DNA from: a virus
Lineage: Duplodnaviria > Heunggongvirae > Uroviricota > Caudoviricetes
Length of the DNA: 64,000 nt
Direction: 5' to 3' (one strand)
IMG/VR virus record: IMGVR_UViG_2788500396_000001
Span: 859-64,858 of that record
The first letter of the stretch is position 1. Each line of letters starts with the position of its first letter. A program made the position numbers and the translations under genes. Positions 18,367-51,906 of this stretch are shown in pieces. The notes under the pieces were generated by a model. The model was not told the origin of the DNA. It made no database searches and worked only from the letters and a program-made list of their open reading frames with translations.

Positions 18367-19722
18367 TTACATCAAAAACTGCGAGACTGTCAGGTAGGGT
18401 AGTGCAAATTCAAGAAGTGTCTCTTTCTCGTTTTTGAGTTTCCCATCGATAACATTCTCTAACAGCATAGACAACATCTTCCCGAGATTTGGACCTGGTT
18501 TAAATCCAATCTGAATTAAATCATTTCCGTTGACTGCTAAATCGCGAAGCGAAAAGCATTCGTTTGAATCATAAACATACTGTAACATCTCAGAGAACAA
18601 ACGAACTTTAGCAAGTCTTTCAGATTGATTCACAGTAGATTGTGCATATATATCTGAGGCCCGCACAAATATGAGCATGTGCAACATATCTCGCCCGTGC
18701 TTATTAAGGCAACGCTTGATGTATGTTCGCTCACAATTGAAAGTGATATCATGATATTTTACAAGATGAGCAACATCTTCAATGATTCGATTCTCAAAAC
18801 GGAGACGTGACATTACATCCCTGCAGATCGGTTCGCTTAATGCTGGATGTCCGTAAAAATGCCCGACTCCATTTTCATCCTCGGAGTATGAGTACGGTTT
18901 ACCAGCGTCATGGAACAGCAATGCCAATCGAACTGTTTCATTTCTAGGCGCATAGTCTATCGCGTGCAGAGTGTGTTCGAACACATCATAAATATGGTAT
19001 GGAGAATTTTGATGGAACCCATCCATATCACGAAGCTCTGGAGCAACTAAAAACAAAATGTTTTTGCACTGTCTTAAAATTTCAGCCGCATTGATCCCGA
19101 CCACCATTTTACGAAGTTCAGCTTGTATTCTTTCCGCAGAAATGCCATTCGGAATATAATTAACAGACTGTATATAAGACAAGGTCTCTGCATCCATGTC
19201 AAATCCAAGGACCGACGCAAATCTCATAGCTCTCATAATTCTGAGCCAGTCTTCTCCGAAGCGATCAGCAGGGCGTCCTACACAACGCACGATTCTTTTG
19301 TTTGCATCAGAGACACCTCCAAAAAAATCGATAATGTTTCCATCATGACCAAGCGCCATGGCGTTGATCGTAAAGTCTCTCCTGGCTAAATCTTCCCGCA
19401 AATCTGACACAAACTCTACTTTTTTAGGATGCCGCCCATCTTCATATTCTCCATCAATTCTATATGTCGTGACTTCATACACTCCGTCATAAACAACAGA
19501 CACGGTGCCATGCTTCAAACCAGTCTCTATGACATGTTTGTCTTTAAAAATATCCACGACCTGCTCTGGCTTTGCATTGGTACATATATCCCAATCATGG
19601 GGCTTTCGCCCCATGACAAGGTCTCTTACACACCCACCAACCAGATACGCCTCATATCCATACTGGTTAAGCCTGGCTAAAATCCGACTCGCTCCATCAG
19701 GAATGCTCCAGTTGTGTTGCAT
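18367..19722 (-). CDS. cca: CCA-adding tRNA nucleotidyltransferase with HD domain
   Basis: Pol-beta head motif YLVGGCVRDLVMGRKPHDWDI. HD motif LLFHDAGKP. RBS AGAGGTGG 6 nt upstream of the ATG. Confidence 0.8.
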   Translation of the reverse strand: MQHNWSIPDGASRILARLNQYGYEAYLVGGCVRDLVMGRKPHDWDICTNAKPEQVVDIFKDKHVIETGLKHGTVSVVYDGVYEVTTYRIDGEYEDGRHPKKVEFVSDLREDLARRDFTINAMALGHDGNIIDFFGGVSDANKRIVRCVGRPADRFGEDWLRIMRAMRFASVLGFDMDAETLSYIQSVNYIPNGISAERIQAELRKMVVGINAAEILRQCKNILFLVAPELRDMDGFHQNSPYHIYDVFEHTLHAIDYAPRNETVRLALLFHDAGKPYSYSEDENGVGHFYGHPALSEPICRDVMSRLRFENRIIEDVAHLVKYHDITFNCERTYIKRCLNKHGRDMLHMLIFVRASDIYAQSTVNQSERLAKVRLFSEMLQYVYDSNECFSLRDLAVNGNDLIQIGFKPGPNLGKMLSMLLENVIDGKLKNEKETLLEFALPYLTVSQFLM

Positions 19723-20722
19723 TCATGACCACCTCTTTATTGACCGCAAAAACAAATTCCTCAACCGCTTTCATGTCTGGGCTCTTAGGTAAATCGCTTG
19801 TTTCTACAGCGTAATTGAATCTCTTTTCAAGATCTGAAACAATTTCAAAAAATTCCGGGCGGTAGGAATGATCTGCTTTTTGGAACTCTCCAGCGCGAAT
19901 TTTCCTGAGCAAAGGTAAATCATCTTTTCTGTTAGTGATGATATCTCCTTTTTCAAAGATATCAATAGCCTCTAAATAGAGGCGAACCAGATGCATTGCA
20001 TGTTTGTTAAGATGATCATCATCCTTTTTGCTGTTTCTGTGGTTGAGTTTATCATAGTTTTTTGCTACCTCTGTCAGTTCGTTCATGATCCCGATGAATT
20101 CGCGCAATGGCATTTTTGACATTGATACATCAGCCATAATTTTAACATCGCACGGATCGTCGTTTAAATATAAACGAATCTGTTCTGGAGAGAAGGTTTT
20201 GTATCTGCATGGGAAAGTTTGCATTGCATTGTTGCAAGATCCCATAATATGGCGCTCTTTATCTTCGGCTGGATAATGGTCTCTAGCTAATGCGTTTTCC
20301 AAGCGACGCAATTGCTGAGTGGCATAACCGCCAAATGAATGAATCGCTCTTTTAGACAAAAACAGCTTTCTGTTTGCAATAATCTGTTCGCCAATTGGAG
20401 TCATTTTAAGATAGTGTTCAGGTAAACAGCCCAACATTTCAATAATGTTTGGATTGCAGTTACACGCCAGATGCACAAATTTATTGAATGCGTAAATTAC
20501 TGTATCGGTTCCGCCATGCTGGAATTGCTCAAACGATGAAAGCCCAATCAGGTCTGAAGCGGACTGCATCGCACACCCTCGAACATCAATATCTGATGTT
20601 GGAGTATTTGTTCCATATGCATGGCTACCACCCATCACCAAGAACAACACATTGTCTCCAAGCCTTGGCTCTGTGGAGAGAAAGCTATATTCGGGGGACT
20701 GCAATATCTTACGGTAATCCAT
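19697..20722 (-). CDS. Pol-beta-superfamily nucleotidyltransferase (minimal NTase, PF10127-like)
   Basis: GGSHAYGTNTPTSDIDVRG (GS-x9-13-DxD). Start moved to the ATG at 20722, preceded by AAGGAGGG. Overlaps cca by 26 nt. Confidence 0.6.
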   Translation of the reverse strand: MDYRKILQSPEYSFLSTEPRLGDNVLFLVMGGSHAYGTNTPTSDIDVRGCAMQSASDLIGLSSFEQFQHGGTDTVIYAFNKFVHLACNCNPNIIEMLGCLPEHYLKMTPIGEQIIANRKLFLSKRAIHSFGGYATQQLRRLENALARDHYPAEDKERHIMGSCNNAMQTFPCRYKTFSPEQIRLYLNDDPCDVKIMADVSMSKMPLREFIGIMNELTEVAKNYDKLNHRNSKKDDDHLNKHAMHLVRLYLEAIDIFEKGDIITNRKDDLPLLRKIRAGEFQKADHSYRPEFFEIVSDLEKRFNYAVETSDLPKSPDMKAVEEFVFAVNKEVVMNATQLEHS

Positions 20723-20821
20723 ATAACCCTCCTTGTGTCCAATAAACAGTACCAAATGGTGATAAGAAAACAAGGAAATCGAACATTTGTATTATAACGT
20801 GCGATTTCCTAAAATGCAACC

Positions 20822-21790
20822 CTAATTTTTTCTTGCGTTACTGATCAGTGCATTGCCGCATGTGATGCGGTCGCTATCTTCTTCATACGACGGCACAAAC
20901 ACAATAACATCCCATCCATGGTCGAGAAGGGGAGCTTCGAACTTACTGTAAACGGAATATTTCTGGTAAGAATCCCCTACATCAAATCCTGAGAGAAGGG
21001 CCGTTGAAGTCTGATGGATAGGCGTAATTTTTACAACAAATTTGTCTTTGTCAAATAGATCGTCCAAAACGCTTGGATCTAAAATTGTCTCATTGGTCAC
21101 GGCGAAGTTCAATGTATATTTTCTGCCAACGGGGGAGGGGAGAGTGTCTGCTAATCTTGAAATTGCACGAAGTCGCATAGACATTCCGTTAAACTGTTTA
21201 TCCCGTTGCGCATCGTCGGTGCTATTAATGCTAAATTGAAGACCGGCTTCTCCACCCCGAGCGTTGTTTTTGATGTCACACCAATATCGCACAAAATCTT
21301 CAGCCATCATATTGCTACGCGGGAGCATAGTAGATACGACTGGATGAATTGTATCTGCCTCCAACCCGCATTCTGCTACCAGGGCATCCAGCTTGTCTTC
21401 GGTAAACGACAGCACATTTGGATTAAAAGTAGGTTCCCCCATACGCGCAAAATGAACATTAAATCTCGCAGTTTTTTTGATTTGTTCACCATGAATGATT
21501 GTTTTAATCTGATACCCAAGGTCATCTTCAGAACAATTGCCATGAAACCCAAACAAAGGCACATCACAAAATCCGCAATGCATGGGGCATCCTTTTTGTG
21601 TGCTGATTGTAGCAACCCACTTATCAGCAAGATCTACATCATGGTGCTCAACGCCTTCGATTTCCTTTGTGTATCCAAGAAAGTTTGCTTTTATATTATT
21701 CTCTTTCCCGTAGTCTCCAACAGTTAAAAACTCAAGGCTTCTATCTCTGTCTACATAAATTTTACCGGTATGGGTTTTAACAATTTCCAT
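20822..21790 (-). CDS. radical SAM enzyme
   Basis: CPMHCGFC (Cx3Cx2C) and ARMGEPTF (GGE-like SAM motif). RBS AGGAG 5 nt upstream. Confidence 0.65.
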   Translation of the reverse strand: MEIVKTHTGKIYVDRDRSLEFLTVGDYGKENNIKANFLGYTKEIEGVEHHDVDLADKWVATISTQKGCPMHCGFCDVPLFGFHGNCSEDDLGYQIKTIIHGEQIKKTARFNVHFARMGEPTFNPNVLSFTEDKLDALVAECGLEADTIHPVVSTMLPRSNMMAEDFVRYWCDIKNNARGGEAGLQFSINSTDDAQRDKQFNGMSMRLRAISRLADTLPSPVGRKYTLNFAVTNETILDPSVLDDLFDKDKFVVKITPIHQTSTALLSGFDVGDSYQKYSVYSKFEAPLLDHGWDVIVFVPSYEEDSDRITCGNALISNARKN

Positions 21791-21803: not shown

Positions 21804-22736
21804 TTAAATATGAATAATCTTATTGTACAAAACTTGAAAATGATCGGTTATTTGCATATCTTGGTGGTAATGGCCACAAAACCATTTTGTCTTCGGAGAC
21901 ATCCTCTTAATGAGTTGCAAAAAATCTGTAAGTTGGTCACTCCTATAAGATGTGCTTATTTTATTCAAAAGTGATGTTGGAGCACAGTGGGTAATAACAT
22001 AGTCAATATCCCAACCAACACTCTCTAAATTGCGAATGGCTTCAGCATATTCTGAATCGGAAGGCATCTCTTCTGGCCACCAATCAATGCCTTTTACTCT
22101 GAACATGCTGCCATTCCGGCGCATCCTCCAGTAAGTTGTGCTGAAGTCAAGATCATCGGGGTCCAGTATTCCATCCCACACATCATGGGATGCAGCTCCG
22201 CCCATCGTAAAAAATTTCTTCCCGGCGATGTTAAATACCTGTCCTCTCATAAGGTGAAGAATGTTTTCTCTGAGAACATGAACCTTTCCGCCTTTCCATT
22301 CGTCGCAAGGGAAAGAATTGAGCAGGTCGAAATTTTCATGGTTGCCGTCAACAAACAGCAGCGTAAATGGTTTAGACTCAATCCAGTCAAGCCAATACTG
22401 ATCTCTACGGCTACCATCCCAGACTCCGCCAAAGTCTCCACAAATGATTACGAAGTCTTCTCTTGTTAAAAACTTTCCTTCTGTGAAACGGCTATTCCCA
22501 AATTTACTAAAATCGCCGTGTGTATCTCCTGTGATGTAAATCATATTCGGTATCACTTCGCTTCTTTCAGATCTCCATCGTAAATATAAATAGGCCCACT
22601 TGAAGAATAATACGGAGACATGTAGCCATATCTTCATCTCATATCGTTTATTTAAATATATCGCAATCTCGTCTTCTGAGAGATTTTCAAGAGCGCTGGA
22701 AACTGCTTCTCCGTATGTCTCCAGAAGATCGCACAC
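21804..22736 (-). CDS. calcineurin-like metallophosphoesterase (possibly with 64-aa N-terminal extension)
   Basis: GDTHGD, GDFGG, GNHE motifs. The in-frame GTG at 22736 has AAGGAGA 6 nt upstream. The canonical phosphoesterase start MIYITGDTHG is at 22544. Confidence 0.65.
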   Translation of the reverse strand: MCDLLETYGEAVSSALENLSEDEIAIYLNKRYEMKIWLHVSVLFFKWAYLYLRWRSERSEVIPNMIYITGDTHGDFSKFGNSRFTEGKFLTREDFVIICGDFGGVWDGSRRDQYWLDWIESKPFTLLFVDGNHENFDLLNSFPCDEWKGGKVHVLRENILHLMRGQVFNIAGKKFFTMGGAASHDVWDGILDPDDLDFSTTYWRMRRNGSMFRVKGIDWWPEEMPSDSEYAEAIRNLESVGWDIDYVITHCAPTSLLNKISTSYRSDQLTDFLQLIKRMSPKTKWFCGHYHQDMQITDHFQVLYNKIIHI

Positions 22737-29957: not shown

Positions 29958-30667
29958 CCTCCATTTTTAAATCTTTCGGCCAACTCAAACACGCTCTTCC
30001 CAACGCCCTTCATCGGGCGCTCTGTTTTCTTTTGTAGGGCTTCTAAACGGCTCCAGTATTCTGGTAGGTACGTGTAGATGTTCCGCAGCTCCTTCAGGTT
30101 CTTATTTGAACAACACCAGCAGGAAACCCGATCCAGGATGTCATAAAGTCTGACGAGGCCTCTTTCCGTTTCTTCCTCCCAGAAGAAGCCCCTGTCATAG
30201 CAATATCTGAGGCAGTCCGCCTCTGTCATTCCGCGTATTGCAAGCGGGAAGATCTTGTTCCCGACCCGTTCTTTCTCTAGCCGGACCTTTTCATCCGCAG
30301 CGATCCCCACATACTCAGCGGAACCTTTGCAGTATCGCTCTACAACAGAGAGCTTGTCTCTCGTTCCCCAGCGGCATCTTCCGCCGCACCAAGAGTAACC
30401 ATAGTGGAAGCCATTCCTGCCGTTTACGGGTTTCTCAAACATCTTCCACTCGAAGTCGTACATAGGTTTTAGGATAGTAAACACTATGCCCTTCTCGTCC
30501 AACAGTTTTTTGACTTGATCTCTAATTTTGTAGATGGCCGAGAACTCCATCCCCGTATCATAGAACACAACTTCGTCCAGCGGCCAACCTTCCTCCATGA
30601 GCAACAGCAACATTGCCAAGCTGTCCTTGCCAAAACTTACACTTGCTATGTGCTTCACACCGACCAC
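29954..30667 (-). CDS. PAPS-reductase-family PP-loop protein
   Basis: N-terminal SFGKDS (SGGKDS PP-loop), 237 aa. Gene is GC-enriched. Confidence 0.55.
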   Translation of the reverse strand: MVGVKHIASVSFGKDSLAMLLLLMEEGWPLDEVVFYDTGMEFSAIYKIRDQVKKLLDEKGIVFTILKPMYDFEWKMFEKPVNGRNGFHYGYSWCGGRCRWGTRDKLSVVERYCKGSAEYVGIAADEKVRLEKERVGNKIFPLAIRGMTEADCLRYCYDRGFFWEEETERGLVRLYDILDRVSCWCCSNKNLKELRNIYTYLPEYWSRLEALQKKTERPMKGVGKSVFELAERFKNGG

Positions 30668-30796
30668 AAACCAAGCTGGATGCGGTCAACAGCTTAATCC
30701 TCCCATGCTACCGGCCTATAGGGCTTTCACGCAGCAACAAGCGGTTTTACGCCGGACTTATCAATCCTCCGGCAACCTGGTCTACCAGGATTGGTG

Positions 30797-31117
30797 TTAG
30801 CTCCTTTCTCTGTTCTTTTTGCAGAAATCTTGAATCTGCTCAAACTCTTTATTTTTTTCTGCTTCTCGTTCTAAGTATTCATCAATTCGGTTCAATGCCC
30901 ATTGCAATCTGCTCGATTCAGTCCAACCAGATCCAATCACAATTTCCTCATCAACTATTTTTTTCTTTTTGAAGAATATGCCAAACGTCTTTTCTTTTTG
31001 AACAACTTCCGACACGCTCACAAAAGGCAACCCAAAATAAGCTTCAGTCCAAAACTCTATTTTAAAGATTCTGCCTTGAACTGTAGTGTAGCCAGTCTGC
31101 AAATCTAACTTTTTCAT
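30797..31117 (-). CDS. hypothetical protein
   Basis: 106-aa ORF. Confidence 0.4.
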   Translation of the reverse strand: MKKLDLQTGYTTVQGRIFKIEFWTEAYFGLPFVSVSEVVQKEKTFGIFFKKKKIVDEEIVIGSGWTESSRLQWALNRIDEYLEREAEKNKEFEQIQDFCKKNRERS

Positions 31118-31124
31118 AAATCAC

Positions 31125-31451
31125 TCACCCATAGAAGAGTCCAAGTGCCATTAAATAAAGCATCTTTTGGATATCCGGATCATCAAGATTCGTCCCCGTG
31201 TATTCGAAAGTATCTGAATCCATTTCAAGGCTTGCTACGACTCCATCCGGGCCAACTTTTTCAAACTTGGTTTTATCCCCTCCGTCAACATAAGAAAATT
31301 CCCAGCTGTAGTCGTTCATCTTAATTCCATTTGTTGTATTCAATACTTTTGTAAAAAGAATCGAAACCTTTTCAAGAATAGTTTCATCATCATCGCATTC
31401 TTGAATTCCCGCAAATCTCATCATGTGTCTAATGTCAAAATTATTATACAT
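31125..31451 (-). CDS. hypothetical protein
   Basis: 108-aa ORF. Confidence 0.4.
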   Translation of the reverse strand: MYNNFDIRHMMRFAGIQECDDDETILEKVSILFTKVLNTTNGIKMNDYSWEFSYVDGGDKTKFEKVGPDGVVASLEMDSDTFEYTGTNLDDPDIQKMLYLMALGLFYG

Positions 31452-31510
31452 AAACCCTCCAATAAGTATAAAAAGGAGAACCCCGCCCCAACGGCAGGGC
31501 TCTCAAAACA

Positions 31511-32464
31511 TTACTCTACGTTCTTCACGCCCGGATTTACGATCACACTAGCACTTTCTCCAGCCTGCACAGTAGGCAACTTGCCGTCCCACTTATCGAT
31601 CCACATCTGCTGGATATACGCATCAGGCATATTCTGCAGGGCCTCACGAGTGATGCGCATTGCCTCAGCTTCGCCCTGGGCTCGAGCAATAGCGGCATTG
31701 GCCTCAATCTTTGCCACTTCGGCCTCCTGCTCAGCCTTCACAACAGCCGTCTTCTTCTCCTGTTCTGCACGCAGCGCATCCTGTTCGGCCGTCATCTTAG
31801 CCTCTACGGACGCCTCAAAAGCATCAGAAAAATCAATGTCCTGTACGATGACGGACGTAAAAGTCACATGATACAGATCCTCAAGAGTTTTAACCTCATC
31901 AGCAACCTCGGCAGACAGAGTGGAACGATTCTCCAAGAGGGTCATTGCACTATACTTTGCAAACACAATCTTTGCCTTTTCCTGCACAACGTTGTCGAGC
32001 TTGGTTTCCAGAATCTCATAGGAACCGTACTCTTTCGCTACATCCATGACTCGATCAGGATTCAGAGCATACTGGAATTCGATGGATGCGGTCATGGGCT
32101 GTGCATCCTGCGTATAAGATGCAAACTGAGCCTGGCGAATGTGTACGCGAAGGTCATACTTAGTTACGGTGTCAGAAATGGGGTTCACCAAATTAAGACC
32201 AGAGGTAATCTTACCGTTGATCTCTCCAAAAGTACGGACAACGCCGACCTCAGTAGAGTCAATAATCTGGATTCCGCTCAGCAAAAAGGCCACTACGAGG
32301 ATAACAGCCAAAATACCTGGAATGATCAAGCGTAACCGGCCAAACACTTTTACATATTCTTGGTCGGCCGAGCTCCTTGAATTTGAACAATACTTCTTTG
32401 CGGCGCTGAACAAACAGAACGCCACGACGCCCAGCACAATAAGGACGACCATCAGAACAATCAT
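31511..32464 (-). CDS. SPFH/band-7 (stomatin/HflC-like) membrane protein
   Basis: N-terminal TM segment, TEVGVVRTFGEINGKITSGLNLVNP core, C-terminal Ala/Glu-rich coiled coil. Confidence 0.7.
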   Translation of the reverse strand: MIVLMVVLIVLGVVAFCLFSAAKKYCSNSRSSADQEYVKVFGRLRLIIPGILAVILVVAFLLSGIQIIDSTEVGVVRTFGEINGKITSGLNLVNPISDTVTKYDLRVHIRQAQFASYTQDAQPMTASIEFQYALNPDRVMDVAKEYGSYEILETKLDNVVQEKAKIVFAKYSAMTLLENRSTLSAEVADEVKTLEDLYHVTFTSVIVQDIDFSDAFEASVEAKMTAEQDALRAEQEKKTAVVKAEQEAEVAKIEANAAIARAQGEAEAMRITREALQNMPDAYIQQMWIDKWDGKLPTVQAGESASVIVNPGVKNVE

Positions 32465-32519
32465 ACTTTTACTCCTTGTTTTTAATATTTAATGAAGGCA
32501 TATGCCAATCATTACACAA

Positions 32520-33371
32520 TTACAATAGGCTTTCGATATAGCTACGATCCTGCGTAAAAATAGGGATGTCAATATCAATAAGCCACCGGCTTCGGATCAC
32601 CTCAGTCTCCTCACCAGTTTTTCTGTTTTTTACAATCGCAGACTCTCTTACTTTTCTACAGGCAGAACCGCGTTTATAAGCAATAGGGAAGTCATTCCAA
32701 TTGATTCCCTTTTCAATAAACAACATATCCTGAATCTGGTTGCAGGATTTCCCATGGAGTTGCTTCGCGCTGAAATATGCTTGGCCAACAGACTCAATGC
32801 TATTTCTTGTGGCGTCTTGTTGTCTCCAAATCAAACAATTGCAAACCTCTTCTTTTGGGATTGAAAATACACGCGAATCAAACATTGCAGAAGAAAATTT
32901 ACTGCAGTATATGTCCGCCATCTTGATAAGCGCGGGATCTACAGGCTGATTAGTGCCACCTTCATCCCAACCAGGAAGATGATCCCGACCCCACTCATCA
33001 ACATTTTCAGAAAAGAATTTATTGAATGCCAGCGTTGCCATGCTTGCGCTTACGCTACACATTTTCTGGACGTTGTAACCAAACCATGCATCTGTAGTGA
33101 TGGTTGCATAATCAGTGAGAATGAGAGTGATTTCATCAGATTGCGTATATCCGAACACACAACCCTGCACATTCTCACACAGATACTTCATTGTCTGCCT
33201 CATGCTTTTAAGGAGAACTTCATCAAAAGGTCTTTCCATTCCTCTTGTAAAAGTGTGGAATGCTTTTCCATCAACACGGACAATGACGGGAACTCGTCGT
33301 GTTAAATAGTTTCTTTGGATATTTTCGTATCCTTTCATCCGATCTCCGAGAGAGTCTTTCTTGTTGCTCAC
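32520..33371 (-). CDS. Thg1-like protein (tRNA-His guanylyltransferase family 3'-5' polymerase)
   Basis: LGDRMKGYE, VIVRVDGKAFHTFTRG, GYTQSDEITLIL and RQQDATRN align with Thg1 signature regions. GTG start with AAGGAGA 6 nt upstream. Confidence 0.75.
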   Translation of the reverse strand: MSNKKDSLGDRMKGYENIQRNYLTRRVPVIVRVDGKAFHTFTRGMERPFDEVLLKSMRQTMKYLCENVQGCVFGYTQSDEITLILTDYATITTDAWFGYNVQKMCSVSASMATLAFNKFFSENVDEWGRDHLPGWDEGGTNQPVDPALIKMADIYCSKFSSAMFDSRVFSIPKEEVCNCLIWRQQDATRNSIESVGQAYFSAKQLHGKSCNQIQDMLFIEKGINWNDFPIAYKRGSACRKVRESAIVKNRKTGEETEVIRSRWLIDIDIPIFTQDRSYIESLL

Positions 33372-33386
33372 ATTGATTCTCCTTTA

Positions 33387-33674
33387 TTATTTTTGACTTT
33401 CAATAACAGTAACGGTACCTTCAAACATCCCCCAAGCACTAGATTGCTCAAAAACATAAGTTTCTGCAAATTCATCAGCTCGCATAGGACGGGTTAAGTA
33501 CCACAGAGAATCATCCTTCCATGTAATCATTTCGAGCTTTTCACCAGGATCGAGTTCAACGACCATATCGCCGCCAAAATTCTTCACCATTTCCTGAGTA
33601 GTGCAACTAGTTAAAAATAGCGAAGCTACCAAAGCAATGCAAACAAACAAAATCAAAATTTTTTTATTCAGCAT
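33387..33674 (-). CDS. lipoprotein (signal peptide + lipobox LTSC)
   Basis: MLNKKILILFVCIALVASLFLTSC. Confidence 0.5.
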   Translation of the reverse strand: MLNKKILILFVCIALVASLFLTSCTTQEMVKNFGGDMVVELDPGEKLEMITWKDDSLWYLTRPMRADEFAETYVFEQSSAWGMFEGTVTVIESQK

Positions 33675-33692
33675 CTTATAATTGAACTCCTT

Positions 33693-34145
33693 TTATTGTT
33701 TTTGATAAATCACCACATCCAAATTATCAAGATATAGATGAATCAAATCAGATACAATTTCCCATTTTCCGTTCGCTAATCCGCACCCAATCCCGTGCGG
33801 TATTGCAATTGTTTTACTTTGGCATCGGTCTGCAATAGATCTTAGACATGTCTCAAAATGCGAATAGCTTGTATAGCATATATGATGGCAACGTCCATAA
33901 TTCAATTGAGCAAAAATATTCGCAACATATCTTCCATCTCCAATGGAGACGTACTGGACTTTCCCCATCAGATCATATGGCGTAGTAAACTTATTGCAGT
34001 ATTTGTGGTATTCTGTTTTCACAACAGGCCATTTAGTGTAAATAGCTTTAGCTAATCCGGAACCCATTACATTTTGACAGTTTACTTGCTGGACAATGAT
34101 GTCCTCATTAGAGTTTAAAATATCTCCCGTAATGTACCTAATCAT
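33693..34145 (-). CDS. macro-domain protein (ADP-ribose / Appr-1''-p processing family)
   Basis: MIRYITGDILNSNEDIIVQQVNCQNVMGSGLAKAI matches the macro-domain N-terminus. The ATG at 34145 has GGAGG 4 nt upstream. Confidence 0.65.
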   Translation of the reverse strand: MIRYITGDILNSNEDIIVQQVNCQNVMGSGLAKAIYTKWPVVKTEYHKYCNKFTTPYDLMGKVQYVSIGDGRYVANIFAQLNYGRCHHICYTSYSHFETCLRSIADRCQSKTIAIPHGIGCGLANGKWEIVSDLIHLYLDNLDVVIYQKQ

Positions 34146-34353
34146 CTTTCCTCCAAAGACCATCAAATGAATCATCGACACTATAGTTTTTCATACAGGT
34201 TGGGCACGTTAGATGCGATACCGCGCGACGAGATCTTCCTGTTTTAACTAAATGTCCATACTCAATTCTTGTTTCTTCTTCTATAAACCAGATCGGGATC
34301 AACGAATCTCCGCAGTATTCACACACACCGTAGCGATCACCATTACTCGCCAT
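34138..34353 (-). CDS. small zinc-ribbon protein
   Basis: CEYCG...CPTC, 71 aa. Confidence 0.4.
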   Translation of the reverse strand: MASNGDRYGVCEYCGDSLIPIWFIEEETRIEYGHLVKTGRSRRAVSHLTCPTCMKNYSVDDSFDGLWRKDD

Positions 34354-34759
34354 ATGTGATATAACGCCCCTCTCGTTCGGCTGCCGATATCATCTCGATC
34401 ACACGGCTAATGCCAAGCGACTCAATCTGCTCCTTCAGAAGGTAATCAATAGAATCCGGGTTCACTGATCTATCATCCCAATATTCATTTGCCCCGATTT
34501 TACGCGGGGAGTTACCAAACCCTTTCTTCCATTCATCCGTACTATCGTTAACAGCAGAGAAGTACAGACCATGTTCTGCGCACGCAGCAAGAGCATCGTC
34601 TAGAAGCTTTCCTTCCCGGCACGTCCAGAGAACCAAGTCCGCTCCATTGAGCTGTTCCTCCAGCGCCTTTTCGATAACACGCATCCTAGGCTCTCCAATC
34701 GAGGGGAACCTGTTCTCAAAAAGCGTTCCGTCAAAATCTATCGCAATAACCTTATTCAT
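34343..34759 (-). CDS. HAD-family phosphatase (small, DxDGT motif)
   Basis: IAIDFDGTL motif I, 138 aa. Confidence 0.5.
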   Translation of the reverse strand: MNKVIAIDFDGTLFENRFPSIGEPRMRVIEKALEEQLNGADLVLWTCREGKLLDDALAACAEHGLYFSAVNDSTDEWKKGFGNSPRKIGANEYWDDRSVNPDSIDYLLKEQIESLGISRVIEMISAAEREGRYITYGE

Positions 34760-34983
34760 TGATCATCCTCCGCTCCCATAATTGCTTCACATGCGGGGCA
34801 TCTTATGCTGTTTGCTGTCCAAATTCCCACCGGATACCCACAGTTCGTACAATTCCATATTGATTGACCAGTGGAACGAGATAAATCCAATTGAATCTCC
34901 CATTTTGCATGAATAACAGGAGCGTAAATCATCTTATTTGCGCCGCTTATTAGGACTAACAACAAAAGACCATTCATACACAT
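34756..34983 (-). CDS. small zinc-ribbon protein
   Basis: CTNCG...CPAC. Start likely at an internal ATG. Confidence 0.35.
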   Translation of the reverse strand: MCMNGLLLLVLISGANKMIYAPVIHAKWEIQLDLSRSTGQSIWNCTNCGYPVGIWTANSIRCPACEAIMGAEDDQ

Positions 34984-35632
34984 CGTCTACATACAGTAGA
35001 TCAGCCCAACACACCTTTCCACCATATTCACGACCCTTCTCGTGTGGGCACTTGCGTTTGTCATAAAAATCTTCTCCGCAAATAGAGCATTGAACTTTGT
35101 TGACTGCACAACCAACACTTATCTCTTTCTTGATCCCATTCTCAATTTCTTCAATCAGTGGTTTGGTATATTCAGATTTGACGATATACGCATATCCTTT
35201 TAGGTAACAGAGAGGGTCTCCAGCAACCGTAATGGTTGTTTCATCTGTTACTAATTCAGTCTTAAAAATGCGGGCATTTTGCCGTGATGTAATCCACTGA
35301 TGATCAAAGATTCCACTCATGCCGATAAACATAGAAGCCAATTCATTTAGCGTGTCTACGGGGAATCGTTCGCTGTCACGATCAATTTCGTTGTCACATA
35401 AGCGGATAGAGAAAACATACACTTCGTCCGCAGAAAGTGGACGATGGCTTATTTTGTTGATTAGATTCAGATTATCAGCACTAACTGCCTGTTCACTGGT
35501 TTCGGTTCCTGTACTTGCTTCCAAAAACTGAATTGCCTGTGTCACACAGTCAGAAAAAAATGCGCCAATCTTCTCGGTCAAAAAATCTGTGTTGCAAGAT
35601 CGTAGCCCATCGATAATTTCTTTTTTAGTCAT
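34934..35632 (-). CDS. hypothetical protein
   Basis: 232 aa, C-terminal Cys cluster. Confidence 0.45.
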   Translation of the reverse strand: MTKKEIIDGLRSCNTDFLTEKIGAFFSDCVTQAIQFLEASTGTETSEQAVSADNLNLINKISHRPLSADEVYVFSIRLCDNEIDRDSERFPVDTLNELASMFIGMSGIFDHQWITSRQNARIFKTELVTDETTITVAGDPLCYLKGYAYIVKSEYTKPLIEEIENGIKKEISVGCAVNKVQCSICGEDFYDKRKCPHEKGREYGGKVCWADLLYVDDVYEWSFVVSPNKRRK

Positions 35633-35773
35633 TGATCTTTCCTTTACAAACCCTTTATTTCTTCTTCCACTTATCGCAGCTGAAGCATGGCTTTAGCGAT
35701 ACACCAAGCATCGGACTGTTCTTATTGGTACATTTACCGTTCTGGCACCAAAAACAAGTTTCACATTTCTCCA

Positions 35774-36334
35774 TCAAATTCTCCTTGCAGAACCCTGTTT
35801 ATCTCCGCCATTCCATTTCCAATTATCTTTGGCTAAAGGGTTCTGATATTGAAAATACTCATGTTTGCATTCTTCACATGGGCCTTCGTTATGATTCGGA
35901 GTGTAGCTTTTACAAGCTGGACAATACCCATGTAGTTGCTGTATTGCGGCATCTCTTTCCTTCTTTACCTCCGCATTGCGACGCTTTTCCTCTTTAAGCA
36001 TCTGAGATAGCTCAGACACTTCGATGGCGAGTTCCATAGACTTAGCGGAATTTTCATCCAAGCGAATAGGGGAGAGACCACAATATAAAGCCTGATTTTC
36101 GTAATACAATTTAATGATTGCATCTGCACAATCAGCTGTCATTTTTGGGATGCATTTGTTCATATCGTTCCCGGAGTAATAGATGCACCCACTTTTACAC
36201 TTATCAATACCATGACTTTTCCCGCATAACGCAATTGATTCAGCTATCTTGATGTAATCCAAGCTCAGGCCTCCTCTGCCGGCATCTCGAACCAACGCAA
36301 TGCATATTCTTCGCTCGGCACCCCGTCTTCGCAC
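35774..36334 (-). CDS. coiled-coil Cys-cluster protein, copy 2 of duplicated cassette
   Basis: Paralog of 23602..24303 (ENQALY..., KERDAAIQQLHG). Confidence 0.5.
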   Translation of the reverse strand: MRRRGAERRICIALVRDAGRGGLSLDYIKIAESIALCGKSHGIDKCKSGCIYYSGNDMNKCIPKMTADCADAIIKLYYENQALYCGLSPIRLDENSAKSMELAIEVSELSQMLKEEKRRNAEVKKERDAAIQQLHGYCPACKSYTPNHNEGPCEECKHEYFQYQNPLAKDNWKWNGGDKQGSARRI

Positions 36335-39928: not shown

Positions 39929-41224
39929 CGAGGACAGCCTAAGTACCCTGCAGTTGCCCGCAGAACACCGAGGTCTTACACCCTCTCCTCAAGCGTTGGG
40001 TAGGTTCCGGTGTGTCCCACCGTACCTTGAATACTTGATTCTTTAGGCGCTGGCCTGTAGCAGCCGCAAACCCTCCATCAGCAGATTCTGGGCGGCGTTT
40101 TGATCCCGGTCGTGGTGGGTTCCGCACTGCGGGCAGGTCCACTCGCGCACCGCAAGATCTTTGACCTCTGGGTTTTGGTACCCACATCGGCTGCATAGCT
40201 GGCTGCTGGAGAAGAAGGTTCCCACTTCTACCAGCATTTTGTGCTGCCAGGCGGCCTTGTACTTGAGCTGACGGGCCAACTCACCCCAAGAGGCATCGGC
40301 GATGGCCTTGGCCAGCTTGTGGTTCTTGAGCATGTCTCCTACATTGAGGCTCTCCACACAGATGATGTCGTAGTCCCTTACCAACTGGGTAGTGAGCTTG
40401 TGCAGGTAGTCCTGCCGGCAGTTGGCGATGCGCTCATGCTGCTTGGCCAGGCGGAGGCGGGCCTTCTCCCGGTTGCGGCTGCCCTTTGGCTTTCGAGACA
40501 GCCGCCGCTGGAGGGTGGCGAGCTTCTTCTCCGCCTTCTGCAGATACTTTGGGTTGTCGAACTTCTGCCCATCTGAGGTGATCACCAAATCCTTGATACC
40601 GACATCCAGCCCTACGGCGGCGCCAGTGCTGGGATACTGGGATATCTCCACCCCGGTGCAGCAGAGGCTCACGAAAAACTTGCCACTGTGGCTCATGCTC
40701 ACGGTGGCGTTGAGAATCCGTCCCTGTACCGGGGTGGAGACCTTGGCCTTTACCCACCCCAGCTTGGGCAGTTTCACCGCCCGGTCGCTGGCCTGAATGT
40801 TTTGTCCAACAACCTTGCTGGTGTAGCTGGCCTTGCTGTGGTGTTTAGCCTTGAATTTGGGGAAGCCCACCTTTCGCCTGCCCTTGCGGCCGGCGAAGAA
40901 GTTCTTGTATGCCTGGTCCATGTGGAGTACGGAGGTCTGCAGGGCTGTGGAGTCAACCTCCCGCAGCCAAGGGTAGGTATCCTTCAGTCCGGGCAGCAGC
41001 TTCACGCAGTCGTGGCCGCTGATGGGGCTGCCGGCAGAATAGGCCGTCTTCCGGGCCGCCAAGGTCTGGTTATAGACGAAGCGGCTGCAGCCGGTGGTCT
41101 TACGGATGAGCTCTTCCTGCTTTGCTGTGGGGTACAACCGGAACTTGTAGGCTTTCTCCATGAGCGGAACCGCCTTTCTTGCGTGGATTTGGATGTTATG
41201 ATATGTTGCATGTAAAAACGCCCC
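39929..41224 (-). mobile_element. IS200/IS605-family element carrying tnpB only (IS1341-like), about 60% GC, with the predicted omegaRNA region at the RE (about 39929-40100)
   Basis: Abrupt GC shift. tnpB is flanked by about 60-nt LE and about 114-nt RE non-coding ends. Inserted directly after the integrase stop codon and before the 39928 gene start. Boundaries approximate. Confidence 0.6.
40043..41161 (-). CDS. tnpB: TnpB (OrfB) RNA-guided RuvC-like nuclease of IS605 family
   Basis: N-terminal [34 protein letters not shown]. RuvC-I D (GLDVGIKDL). RuvC-II E (VCVESLNVG). Zinc finger CSRCG...CPQCG. Ruv[15 protein letters not shown]. Confidence 0.9.
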
Positions 41225-42058: not shown

Positions 42059-42391
42059 TTATAGTGCAAAGCTGACGTGCAAAGCACGGTTAACATCATC
42101 CATCTCTTTCTCGCTGAGGGAACACAGCTTTTGAATGAGACGAGTTTTGTCTAAAGTACGAACCTGCTCAAGTAGAATGGTTGAATTTCTAGGAAGCCCA
42201 TCACGATGCTTGATGTTGATGTGGGTTGGTAGAGGTTTCTTCGTGTTTTTAGACGTAATCGCTGCGGCAATCACAGTTGGACTATATGTATTGCCGATAT
42301 CATTCTGAACAACAAGAACAGGGCGAATACCGCCCTGTTCACAACCAACTACAGGATTAAGATCTGCGAGGTAGATTTCACCTCTGGTCAT
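42059..42391 (-). CDS. mazF: MazF/PemK/EndoA-family mRNA interferase toxin
   Basis: RGEIYLADLNPVVGCEQGGIRPVLVVQNDIGN...KPLPTHINI...ILLEQVRTLDK is near-collinear with B. subtilis EndoA. Start taken at ATG 42391. Confidence 0.8.
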   Translation of the reverse strand: MTRGEIYLADLNPVVGCEQGGIRPVLVVQNDIGNTYSPTVIAAAITSKNTKKPLPTHINIKHRDGLPRNSTILLEQVRTLDKTRLIQKLCSLSEKEMDDVNRALHVSFAL

Positions 42392-42398
42392 GTTATAA

Positions 42399-42635
42399 TC
42401 ATCTTCTCCTTCCACTAACAGAGTGCATTGCCATTCTCTGTAATTTTTTGTATTCTTCGTCGCTTAGCACCGGTCCTTTCTTTTTCTGTTCCTCAATTTC
42501 CGCTAACCGCTTATTTGCAAGTGCCGACACTTCTTTCCATTCCTTACGTTGTCTTGATCTTTCGTTGATCGTGATAGATGCATCAGCCGCGCTTTTCAAA
42601 ATAAAAGCTACAATAATTAAATAAAGTATCCACAT
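42399..42635 (-). CDS. small membrane-anchored charged protein (candidate non-canonical antitoxin)
   Basis: The N-terminus WILYLIIVAFILKSAADA is hydrophobic and the C-terminal half is Lys/Glu-rich. The stop overlaps the mazF start region. RBS GGAGGA. Confidence 0.45.
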   Translation of the reverse strand: MWILYLIIVAFILKSAADASITINERSRQRKEWKEVSALANKRLAEIEEQKKKGPVLSDEEYKKLQRMAMHSVSGRRR

Positions 42636-51243: not shown

Positions 51244-51906
51244 TCATTGGGTGTCCTCCATATCCTTTGGGGATTTCTTAACGGTTATGAAGTCATACTC
51301 TCCACTCTTTTGGATGATCATGGCGCAAAGTTGATTTCCAAAGACACAACCTCCGTCAATACCAATGTCGCCGGTTCGCGGAAAGCAAGGAACTTCTCTA
51401 AATGGGGTATGGCCGAAAATTACGCGCTTTTCGCGGGGCCTGGCGTCAATTTCAAGCCATGTTCTGCCCCAGAGCAAATCTTCTTCGCTGTTGCTAATCA
51501 AATCAGGATGGGTAAGGCCGGCATGACAGAAAATAAACTGTTCCGTTTGATGGTACAAAGGCAGAGACCGAAACCATCCAAATTCTTCCTGGATTTCTGC
51601 TCCATTTCTTGCGTAGTCATAAAGTGTAAACATTCCGCCATTGCGCATCCAGACAGCATGGGAATAGTTTGTAGGGAGCGATTCGTGATTCCCCCGAAGA
51701 CAGATTACTTTGTCTTTTCCTACCTGATTCTGGAGCTTTTGAAGGGTTTTGACTACCTTATAACTAAACGGGCCACGATCAATGTAGTCTCCCAAGAAAA
51801 TCAGGGTGTCGGTGGCACTGTTATAATTAACCTTGAGCAGTAGATCTACCATGGTATGGTAGCAGCCATGGATATCCCCAATAGCTATAATGCGTTTACT
51901 CTCCAT
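51244..51906 (-). CDS. PPP-family Ser/Thr protein phosphatase / ApaH-like metallophosphatase
   Basis: IAIGDIHGC, GDYIDRG, LRGNHE. Confidence 0.75.
   Translation of the reverse strand: MESKRIIAIGDIHGCYHTMVDLLLKVNYNSATDTLIFLGDYIDRGPFSYKVVKTLQKLQNQVGKDKVICLRGNHESLPTNYSHAVWMRNGGMFTLYDYARNGAEIQEEFGWFRSLPLYHQTEQFIFCHAGLTHPDLISNSEEDLLWGRTWLEIDARPREKRVIFGHTPFREVPCFPRTGDIGIDGGCVFGNQLCAMIIQKSGEYDFITVKKSPKDMEDTQ

Follow-up and report, generated by a model that had tools for sequence, protein, structure and literature searches.

A phage-encoded Thg1-like protein as a candidate tRNA 5′-end repair enzyme in a genome that carries an RNA-repair toolkit

To our knowledge, Thg1-like proteins (TLPs) are the only enzymes that polymerise nucleotides in the 3′–5′ direction. 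The eukaryotic Thg1 enzymes are specific for tRNA-His, to which they add an untemplated G-1 opposite A73, and such tRNA-His-specific enzymes are marked by the motif HINNLYN. A wider role in RNA repair, large DNA viruses included, was proposed for Thg1 in 2010 by Anantharaman, Iyer, and Aravind, who described bacterial Thg1 neighbourhoods with a polynucleotide kinase, a Macro-domain protein, and an RNA ligase (PMC2904730). A survey of jumbo phages from 2021 placed Thg1 among the RNA-repair enzymes of phages, together with RlaP, the CCA-adding enzyme, and RNA ligases (PMC7824862), and gp143 of Bacillus phage Bc431v3 was annotated in 2013 as a putative tRNA-His guanylyltransferase (PMC3601020). 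In the complex of an archaeal TLP with tRNA, a hairpin grips the tRNA elbow and measures the length of the acceptor stem, which brings the addition to a stop (PMC4820378). Here, we analyse a TLP gene at positions 32520..33371 (minus strand) of a 64,000-nucleotide stretch of the virus record IMGVR_UViG_2788500396_000001 (positions 859 to 64,858; Caudoviricetes), which is referred to as the window. We assign a probability of about 0.6 to the reading that its product carries out the templated repair of tRNA 5′ ends as one component of an RNA-repair toolkit encoded by the phage.

Positions 32520..33371 coincide exactly with one open reading frame (ORF) of 283 aa on the minus strand, which starts with GTG; the start codon follows, at a distance of 7 nt, a Shine-Dalgarno sequence read from the DNA (AAGGAG, 33379..33384, minus strand). 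The initial annotation, which gave no strand, had identified a Thg1-like 3′–5′ polymerase at this position from four motifs, and all of them are present: LGDRMKGYE (residues 8–16), VRVDGKAFHTF (31–41), GYTQSDEITLIL (74–85), and RQQDATRN (183–190). The identification holds in a profile search with the Pfam model PF04446 (Thg1), which matches with 101.8 bits (cut-off, 29.2; E = 3.6e-29) over profile positions 2–130 of 130. It agrees with a full-length match to PHROG 4717 (‘tRNA-His guanylyltransferase’; E = 1.2e-95) and with the best solved structure by sequence, the TLP of Bacillus thuringiensis (BtTLP; 4KGK, E = 1.4e-63). The model of the C-terminal part, PF14413 (Thg1C), matched below threshold, and none of the NCBIfam models matched the protein. 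Judging from these profiles, the ORF clearly encodes a real and intact Thg1-like protein, predicted to be a 3′–5′ RNA polymerase.

The sequence also assigns the window protein to the TLP type and not to the tRNA-His-specific type of the eukaryotic Thg1 enzymes. This assignment is based on the absence of HINNLYN (the segment DATRNSIESV aligns to DTHINNLYNT of yeast Thg1, with RNSIESV in place of the motif), on the position of BtTLP as best match, and on the far greater distance of the eukaryotic enzymes; the E-values for Thg1 of yeast, Candida, and human range only from 1.4e-10 to 3e-6, and the TLP of Methanosarcina acetivorans (MaTLP) is matched at 9.4e-13.

Of the active-site residues tested, all but one are conserved in the window protein. 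The residue roles, which were taken from the structural study of BtTLP (PMC3701042), were transferred by an ungapped alignment that covers query residues 6–123 (offset, +4) and resumes at query residue 161, and conservation was read from two alignments, one comprising the 28 sequences of the clade of closest metagenomic homologs (A1) and one with six distant TLPs from Fusobacterium, Staphylococcus, Mycobacterium, and Aeromonas phages and from Paenibacillus (A2). The metal-binding, catalytic carboxylates D30, D75, and E76 of BtTLP (D29, D76, and E77 of hTHG1) correspond to D34, D79, and E80 of the window TLP; the residues that bind the incoming nucleoside triphosphate (NTP), namely R28, R131, and the conserved lysine equivalent to K96 of ScThg1, correspond to R32, R167, and K103; the salt-bridging E12 corresponds to E16, and S74, which contacts the activating nucleotide, to S78. 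All these residues of the window TLP are invariant in A1 and A2. K43 of BtTLP, which positions ATP for adenylylation, is replaced by R47; the equivalent residue is an arginine also in the homologs P0003 and P0116 and a lysine in most members of the clade. With this set of residues, the window TLP is predicted to be catalytically competent.

The predicted structure agrees with the family assignment. A confident AlphaFold2 (AF2) model computed with the 28-sequence alignment (predicted local distance difference test, pLDDT, 83.5; predicted template modelling score, pTM, 0.84) contains the polymerase-like palm fold and the C-terminal domain of Thg1. In a Foldseek search of the PDB with this model, the top 32 matches were all chains of Thg1 or TLPs, with 4KGM as the best match (E = 1e-22) and target-normalised template modelling (TM) scores of 0.79–0.83 for 4KGM and 4KGK. 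The match to BtTLP splits into two blocks (query 6–123 with chain 2–119; query 161–281 with chain 125–235), and 163 residues of the window TLP cover 129 positions of PF04446. The gap in both comparisons is a clade-specific insertion of residues ~124–160 (32892..33002, minus strand), which is predicted to form a helical hairpin: the model has helices at residues 101–131 and 146–157, which would make one helix longer and add another. Sequence and length of the insertion vary across the family in both A1 and A2. Near the C terminus, the modelled strands 236–248 and 255–266 form a β-hairpin (residues ~236–266; 32574..32666, minus strand) that is longer than in BtTLP and aligns with the elbow-binding hairpin of MaTLP (5AXK), whose counterpart it appears to be from the model, the conservation, and this alignment. 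In the 28-sequence alignment, W263 of the hairpin does not vary and R260 is conserved in at least 90% of the sequences; the equivalence of R260 to the arginine of MaTLP is by alignment only.

The gene has been maintained by selection. Comparison with a 95%-identical homolog on a related viral contig (L001) revealed 47 synonymous and 12 non-synonymous codon differences, and the gene is therefore under purifying selection. That it might be a decaying or non-catalytic passenger without a role in infection is suggested by its status as an accessory gene within a variable region and by the arginine in the position of K43. Such a passenger is very improbable in view of the large excess of synonymous changes, the invariance of the tested active-site residues other than R47, the full length of the ORF, which aligns end to end with its homologs, and the size of the family, in which 8000 of 8000 scored metagenomic candidates have E-values below 1e-5 and the listed matches are 60–96% identical and similar in length.

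The phage encodes further enzymes with predicted roles in the repair of tRNA, so that the window represents a gut phage equipped for three kinds of damage, namely loss of the 3′ CCA, internal breaks, and 5′ truncation. The initial annotation had pointed to CCA-adding and end-healing enzymes elsewhere in the phage, and both were recovered. The CCA-adding enzyme, which should repair tRNA 3′ ends, is encoded at 18367..19722 (minus strand; head domain PF01743, PolyA_pol, E = 9.5e-38; PF13735, tRNA_NucTran2_2; HD domain), and a Pnkp-like healing-and-sealing enzyme of 743 aa at 8263..10494 (minus strand). The latter combines a P-loop polynucleotide kinase (PF13671), a metallophosphoesterase (PF00149), and an Rnl1-type RNA ligase (PF09511); it belongs to PHROG 8238 (E = 1.4e-218) and matches the kinase domain of CthPnkp, lambda phosphatase, and tRNA ligase in the PDB. 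The end of the CCA gene is overlapped by a gene for an RlaP-family Pol-beta nucleotidyltransferase, a family associated with RNA ligases (19697..20773, minus strand; PF10127, E = 4.9e-19; PHROG 388). Beside these two genes lies that of a conserved 322-aa protein of unassigned function (20822..21790, minus strand; PHROG 24834), whose gene follows the TLP gene after 259 nt in two related groups of loci, and then a metallophosphoesterase gene (21804..22736, minus strand; PF00149, PHROG 1649). The phosphatase module of the 743-aa enzyme has a relative in another stand-alone metallophosphoesterase, which resembles lambda phosphatase and NinI (51244..51906, minus strand; PHROG 246, E = 5.4e-51).

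In such a toolkit, the TLP would attend to 5′ ends, the CCA-adding enzyme to 3′ ends, and the kinase, phosphatase, and ligase together with RlaP to internal breaks. The proposed substrate of the TLP is a tRNA that has lost one or a few nucleotides from the 5′ strand of its acceptor stem. If the truncated end carries a 5′-hydroxyl group, the phage kinase would phosphorylate it first; the resulting 5′-monophosphate would be activated with ATP or GTP, whereas a 5′-triphosphate could be used directly. Nucleotides would then be added in the 3′–5′ direction, the intact 3′ strand specifying each of them by Watson-Crick pairing, and addition would continue to the full length of the stem, with the stopping point set by the flexible β-hairpin in contact with the tRNA elbow. 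The benefit to the phage would most likely lie in the preservation of host and phage tRNAs against nuclease damage during infection.

The association of TLPs with RNA repair extends to the relatives of the window. It was surveyed in 80 loci from IMG/VR with flanks of up to 10 kb per side and in six loci found by exact protein look-up, mostly on viral contigs, whose ORFs were called and clustered; dereplication at 85% TLP identity (85 fetched loci and the window) yielded 34 groups, one of which includes the window. Of these, 23 have a gene for an RNA ligase, RlaP, or a CCA-adding enzyme no more than 10 kb from the TLP gene, and 13 have one no more than 3 kb away; all such genes are co-directional with the TLP gene. 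A profile for the kinase-HD protein was left out of this count because it cross-matched the HD domain of CCA-adding enzymes (47 loci). Among the individual neighbour families, a MazF/PemK-like protein is the most common within 10 kb (13/34 groups), followed by an RNA ligase of PF09414 with a PHA02142 OB domain (11/34), a class-V aminotransferase (10–11/34), a small metallophosphoesterase at a median distance of 600 nt downstream (10/34), and RlaP-like nucleotidyltransferases of a 268-aa family (10/34) and a 340-aa family (9/34). An AAA_33 kinase with an HD domain (9/34), an HD protein (8/34), and an NAD-dependent DNA ligase (8/34) are also recurrent, as is the CCA-adding enzyme, which was detected within 10 kb in 7/34 groups by clustering and in 12/34 with a profile.

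Several of these neighbours have features of their own. A MazF/PemK-like endoribonuclease gene is present also in the window (42059..42415, minus strand). The class-V aminotransferase, which resembles cysteine desulfurases (PF00266, E = 1e-81) and might have a role in tRNA thiolation, follows the TLP gene at a distance of ~1.2 kb in many relatives (e.g., L030, 11974..13176; L086, 7299..8456); a homolog is absent from the window. In L086, a gene a few positions upstream of that of the TLP (5650..7206) encodes a DUF2828/DUF7788 protein; DUF2828 is presumably related to Ro60/TROVE-like RNA-binding proteins.

The tightest association is that with RlaP. In one locus (L035), the RlaP-like gene begins 9 nt past the TLP gene, and in another (L086, 10001..11242), a 413-aa protein (P0060) joins the N-terminal ~115 residues of the RlaP-like family in frame to a complete TLP; it may be a true fusion or the product of a deletion between adjacent genes. 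Adjacency and fusion would also fit a TLP that acts mainly on RNA ends other than acceptor stems, either by filling in 5′ ends at breaks in the anticodon loop or elsewhere, or by only adenylylating 5′-phosphates to App-RNA for ligation together with RlaP and RNA ligase. The recurrence of genes for RNA ligase and polynucleotide kinase near the TLP gene is compatible with such an activity, ligation via 5′-App was raised in 2010 (PMC2904730), and the 37-aa insertion and the longer hairpin could alter the choice of substrate. Nevertheless, we consider a preference for other ends distinctly unlikely: all characterised TLPs require a base-paired template 3′ strand that resembles an acceptor stem (PMC3701042, PMC4820378), the elbow-binding hairpin and its conserved arginine have been kept, and the poor conservation of the insertion is typical of a surface excursion.

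The same linkage is found among cultured phages, of which 161 records encode a homolog of the window TLP, with identities of up to 58% and in most cases annotated as ‘tRNA-His guanylyltransferase’. The TLP-bearing phages range in genome size from 88 kb to >600 kb and infect hosts that include Bacillus, Prevotella, Caulobacter, Mycobacterium, Erwinia, and Vibrio. In Mycobacterium phage Yeet, the TLP gene is followed by two small genes and a polynucleotide kinase gene, with an RNA ligase and a metallophosphoesterase further along; in Aeromonas phage phiA009, it is followed by four small genes, RNA ligase 1, and a small ATPase. Fusobacterium phage FNU2 has a prohibitin gene after the TLP gene, as in the window, and encodes a 738-aa ‘metallophosphoesterase’ beside its tRNA cluster. 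Staphylococcus phage PMBT8 encodes a TLP and has no tRNA genes within 40 kb, evidence against a function that depends on a tRNA-His of the phage.

This last point bears on the function implied by the common annotation. A literal tRNA-His guanylyltransferase would add G-1 to a tRNA-His, encoded elsewhere in the phage genome or by the host, that does not receive G-1 from its gene or its processing, and thereby restore its recognition by histidyl-tRNA synthetase. The label of PHROG 4717 and of most phage records speaks for this activity, and TLPs add G-1 opposite C73 in vitro and possess a second, anticodon-dependent binding mode (PMC4820378). Moreover, tRNA-His genes near TLP genes depart from the bacterial norm of G-1:C73 in three of four cases, an anecdotal sample inspected by hand and lacking a control: position -1 is T and position 73 is C in a Micromonospora genome with an array of ~35 tRNA genes (L138, 18512..18585), T and U in an IMG/VR phage (L080, 13713..13786), and G and A in phage FNU2 (L149, 5143..5216), with only a Ruminococcus locus showing the canonical G and C (L098, 2706..2779). 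By contrast, the 12 tRNAs of the 64-kb window do not include tRNA-His, neither Yeet nor phiA009 has a tRNA-His nearby, and the recurrent neighbours of TLPs are ligases, kinases, and RlaP but not tRNA-His. Together with PMBT8 and the absence of HINNLYN from the window TLP, these observations make G-1 addition an unlikely alternative to acceptor-stem repair.

The tRNA genes of the window, which are possible clients of the enzyme, form an array of 12 (13118..16469, minus strand; ARAGORN and Rfam) that is interrupted by an HNH/NUMOD-like homing-endonuclease ORF (15187..15600). Each of the 12 has seven Watson-Crick or G-U pairs in the acceptor stem and an encoded CCA. Because all stems are paired and none belongs to tRNA-His, the window offers no substrate for 5′ editing or G-1 addition. 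Editing of the 5′ ends of the phage's own tRNAs, as in the mitochondrial type of amoebozoans, was rejected, there being no mismatch in the first three pairs of any of the 12 stems; the alternative suggestion of the initial annotation, a maturation of the phage's own tRNAs, likewise finds no support in the window.

Other features of the array were noted. The tRNA-Ile(UAU) (15802..15892, minus strand; Rfam tRNA, 62.9 bits) measures 91 nt and has a variable region of ~20 nt, which is uncommon for tRNA-Ile, and encodes its CCA; a similar tRNA-Ile of 94 nt occurs in a related viral contig (L069, 7558..7651). Between 14922 and 16469 (minus strand), the tRNAs of the runs Pro-Gly, Gln-Lys-Ile, and Thr-Ala-Glu are spaced by only 1–3 nt after the encoded CCA. 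Downstream of tRNA-Leu(UAA) lies a non-coding region of ~270 nt (14330..14600, minus strand) that appears structured by eye. A permissive scan with Rfam gave nothing in this segment and, across the tRNA region, only tRNAs and sub-threshold noise, such as a match to RAGATH-27 at 13467..13550 (38 bits; cut-off, 76).

The templated repair of tRNA 5′ ends by the window TLP, which the initial annotation had favoured, is thus supported by the membership in the TLP type, the predicted fold, the active-site residues retained with a single conservative change, the retained hairpin with its near-invariant arginine, purifying selection on the gene, the toolkit encoded in the same genome, the linkage to RNA-repair genes in uncultured relatives and cultured phages, the adjacency and fusion with RlaP, and published comparative genomics. 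Several points weigh against it. The TLP gene is located 10–24 kb from the repair genes of the window, and its immediate neighbours are no obvious RNA enzymes. The linkage counts were obtained from TLP-positive loci alone, without a TLP-free control, and large phages commonly have many enzymes of nucleic acid metabolism in their early-gene regions. No host defence nuclease with a trimming activity on tRNA 5′ ends is known to us. The arginine R47 is the sole deviation among the tested active-site residues, a conservative change from lysine; at most, a shifted use of cofactors is expected from comparison with BtTLP, because the K43A variant of that enzyme shows ~10-fold lower ATP-dependent activation and unaltered GTP-dependent activation (PMC3701042). 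Full-text literature searches found no biochemical study of any phage TLP, and also for bacterial TLPs, the physiological substrate is not established (PMC3701042).

The reading of the window TLP is not new, because homologs are annotated in 161 phage records and a repair role was put forward by the comparative genomics of 2010 and 2021; both phage TLPs and their proposed function are already in the literature, and the evidence from the window leaves the idea unchanged. What remains novel are the insertion of the clade, the adjacency and fusion with RlaP, and the question of the source of tRNA 5′-end damage in the course of infection. It is conceivable, albeit speculative and improbable, that the very large gut-phage clade with its insertion, longer hairpin, and link to RlaP has a different substrate range and rebuilds 5′ acceptor strands or other RNA ends after attack by an undescribed host defence nuclease; in that case, bacteria would be expected to possess a class of immunity directed at the 5′ ends of tRNAs. 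A defence role of the TLP itself was also considered and dropped, as PADLOC gave no match for the protein. The link between TLPs and RNA repair recurs in many uncultured gut phages and in cultured phages of Actinobacteria, Proteobacteria, and Fusobacteria, so that phage TLPs offer a reasonable starting point for studies of how tRNA 5′ ends are damaged in infection.

The immediate surroundings of the TLP gene comprise a gene for an SPFH/Band7 (prohibitin-like) membrane protein directly downstream (31511..32464, minus strand) and, upstream, a lipoprotein-like ORF of 95 aa followed by a macro-domain protein. The pairing of SPFH/Band7 protein and TLP is found also in phage FNU2 (L149, 21389..22198) and on a contig of a Eubacterium metagenome-assembled genome (MAG) from yak rumen (L147, ~12628..13059). 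The DarG-like macro-domain protein is encoded by the second gene upstream from that of the TLP (33693..34181, minus strand; PHROG 335) and matches macro domains in the PDB (2FG1, 2AFC, and 5M3I; E ~1e-10) and DarG in PADLOC (E = 2.2e-17). Homologs are located near the TLP gene in 4/34 locus groups (phmmer), and linkage of Thg1 and Macro domains was seen in bacteria in 2010 (PMC2904730). The stand-alone macro-domain protein of the window could counter ADP-ribosylation of the DarT type instead of repairing RNA. At the chromosomal TLP loci of Paenibacillus, homologs of the kinase and the macro-domain protein of the window were not detected by tblastn, a result that is weakened by the divergence of the sequences.

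The nearest matches of the window TLP in the genome collection, with 52–64% identity, are from MAG contigs of Clostridia, Eubacteriales, Ruminococcus, and Lachnospiraceae, and chromosomal TLPs of Paenibacillus come next with ~45% identity. Because these closest matches are on contigs of Clostridia-type bacteria from gut and rumen, followed by Paenibacillus, the host of the phage is probably a gut member of Bacillota. The phage origin of the DNA is supported by the tRNAs, the PHROG matches, the homing endonuclease, and the relatives on IMG/VR viral contigs of 75–190 kb. Almost all genes of the window are on the minus strand, no structural gene was identified inside it, and a megablast search with positions 30000..36000 against cultured phages returned zero matches. 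Mobile elements are also present in the window. The large subunit of ribonucleotide reductase (938..4348, minus strand), which has a C-terminal TSCPD domain, is split by an intein that harbours a LAGLIDADG homing endonuclease. An IS605-type TnpB (OrfB, with a Cas12f-like TNB domain) is encoded at 40043..41161 (minus strand); in a 95%-related contig (L002, 11907 onward), the position of TnpB with respect to the TLP gene is different, suggesting that it has moved recently.

Among the known systems, the window TLP is most similar to BtTLP (4KGK/4KGM), with which it shares ~50–60% identity over the two aligned blocks (estimated by eye) or 37–40% over the whole Foldseek alignment, as well as the fold, the catalytic carboxylates, the arginine and lysine residues for the incoming NTP, and the motif WRQQDAxxNS. 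It differs in the 37-residue helical insertion after residue 123, the longer C-terminal hairpin, and R47 in place of K43; moreover, BtTLP is encoded on a bacterial chromosome, whereas the window TLP is encoded by a phage. The phage proteins of PHROG 4717, such as gp143 of Bacillus phage Bc431v3, FNU2_71 of Fusobacterium phage FNU2, and the homolog of Pseudomonas phage 201phi2-1, belong to the same family and likewise stem from large, tRNA-bearing phages, but the window TLP is at most 58% identical to any record of the phage collection, has no match there at the nucleotide level, and belongs to a clade known only from metagenomes. MaTLP (5AXK–5AXN) is a template-dependent repair enzyme whose elbow hairpin with its conserved arginine has a counterpart in the window protein, although with ~25% identity it is far more distant than BtTLP. 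The eukaryotic Thg1 enzymes of yeast, human, and Candida (5XOX, 3OTB, and 3WBZ) have the superfamily, the fold, and the two-metal active site in common with the window TLP, but their identity is only 19–22% and their HINNLYN motif is replaced. At the level of the whole genome, the closest parallels are the Pnkp/Rnl1 system of phage T4 and the repertoire of jumbo phages (PMC7824862), phage toolkits that restore tRNAs cut by host nucleases and whose listed components are all present in the window. Unlike the phages described here, T4 lacks a TLP, and whereas those toolkits are from T4-like and jumbo phages, the carriers of the present clade appear to be gut phages of ~75–190 kb.

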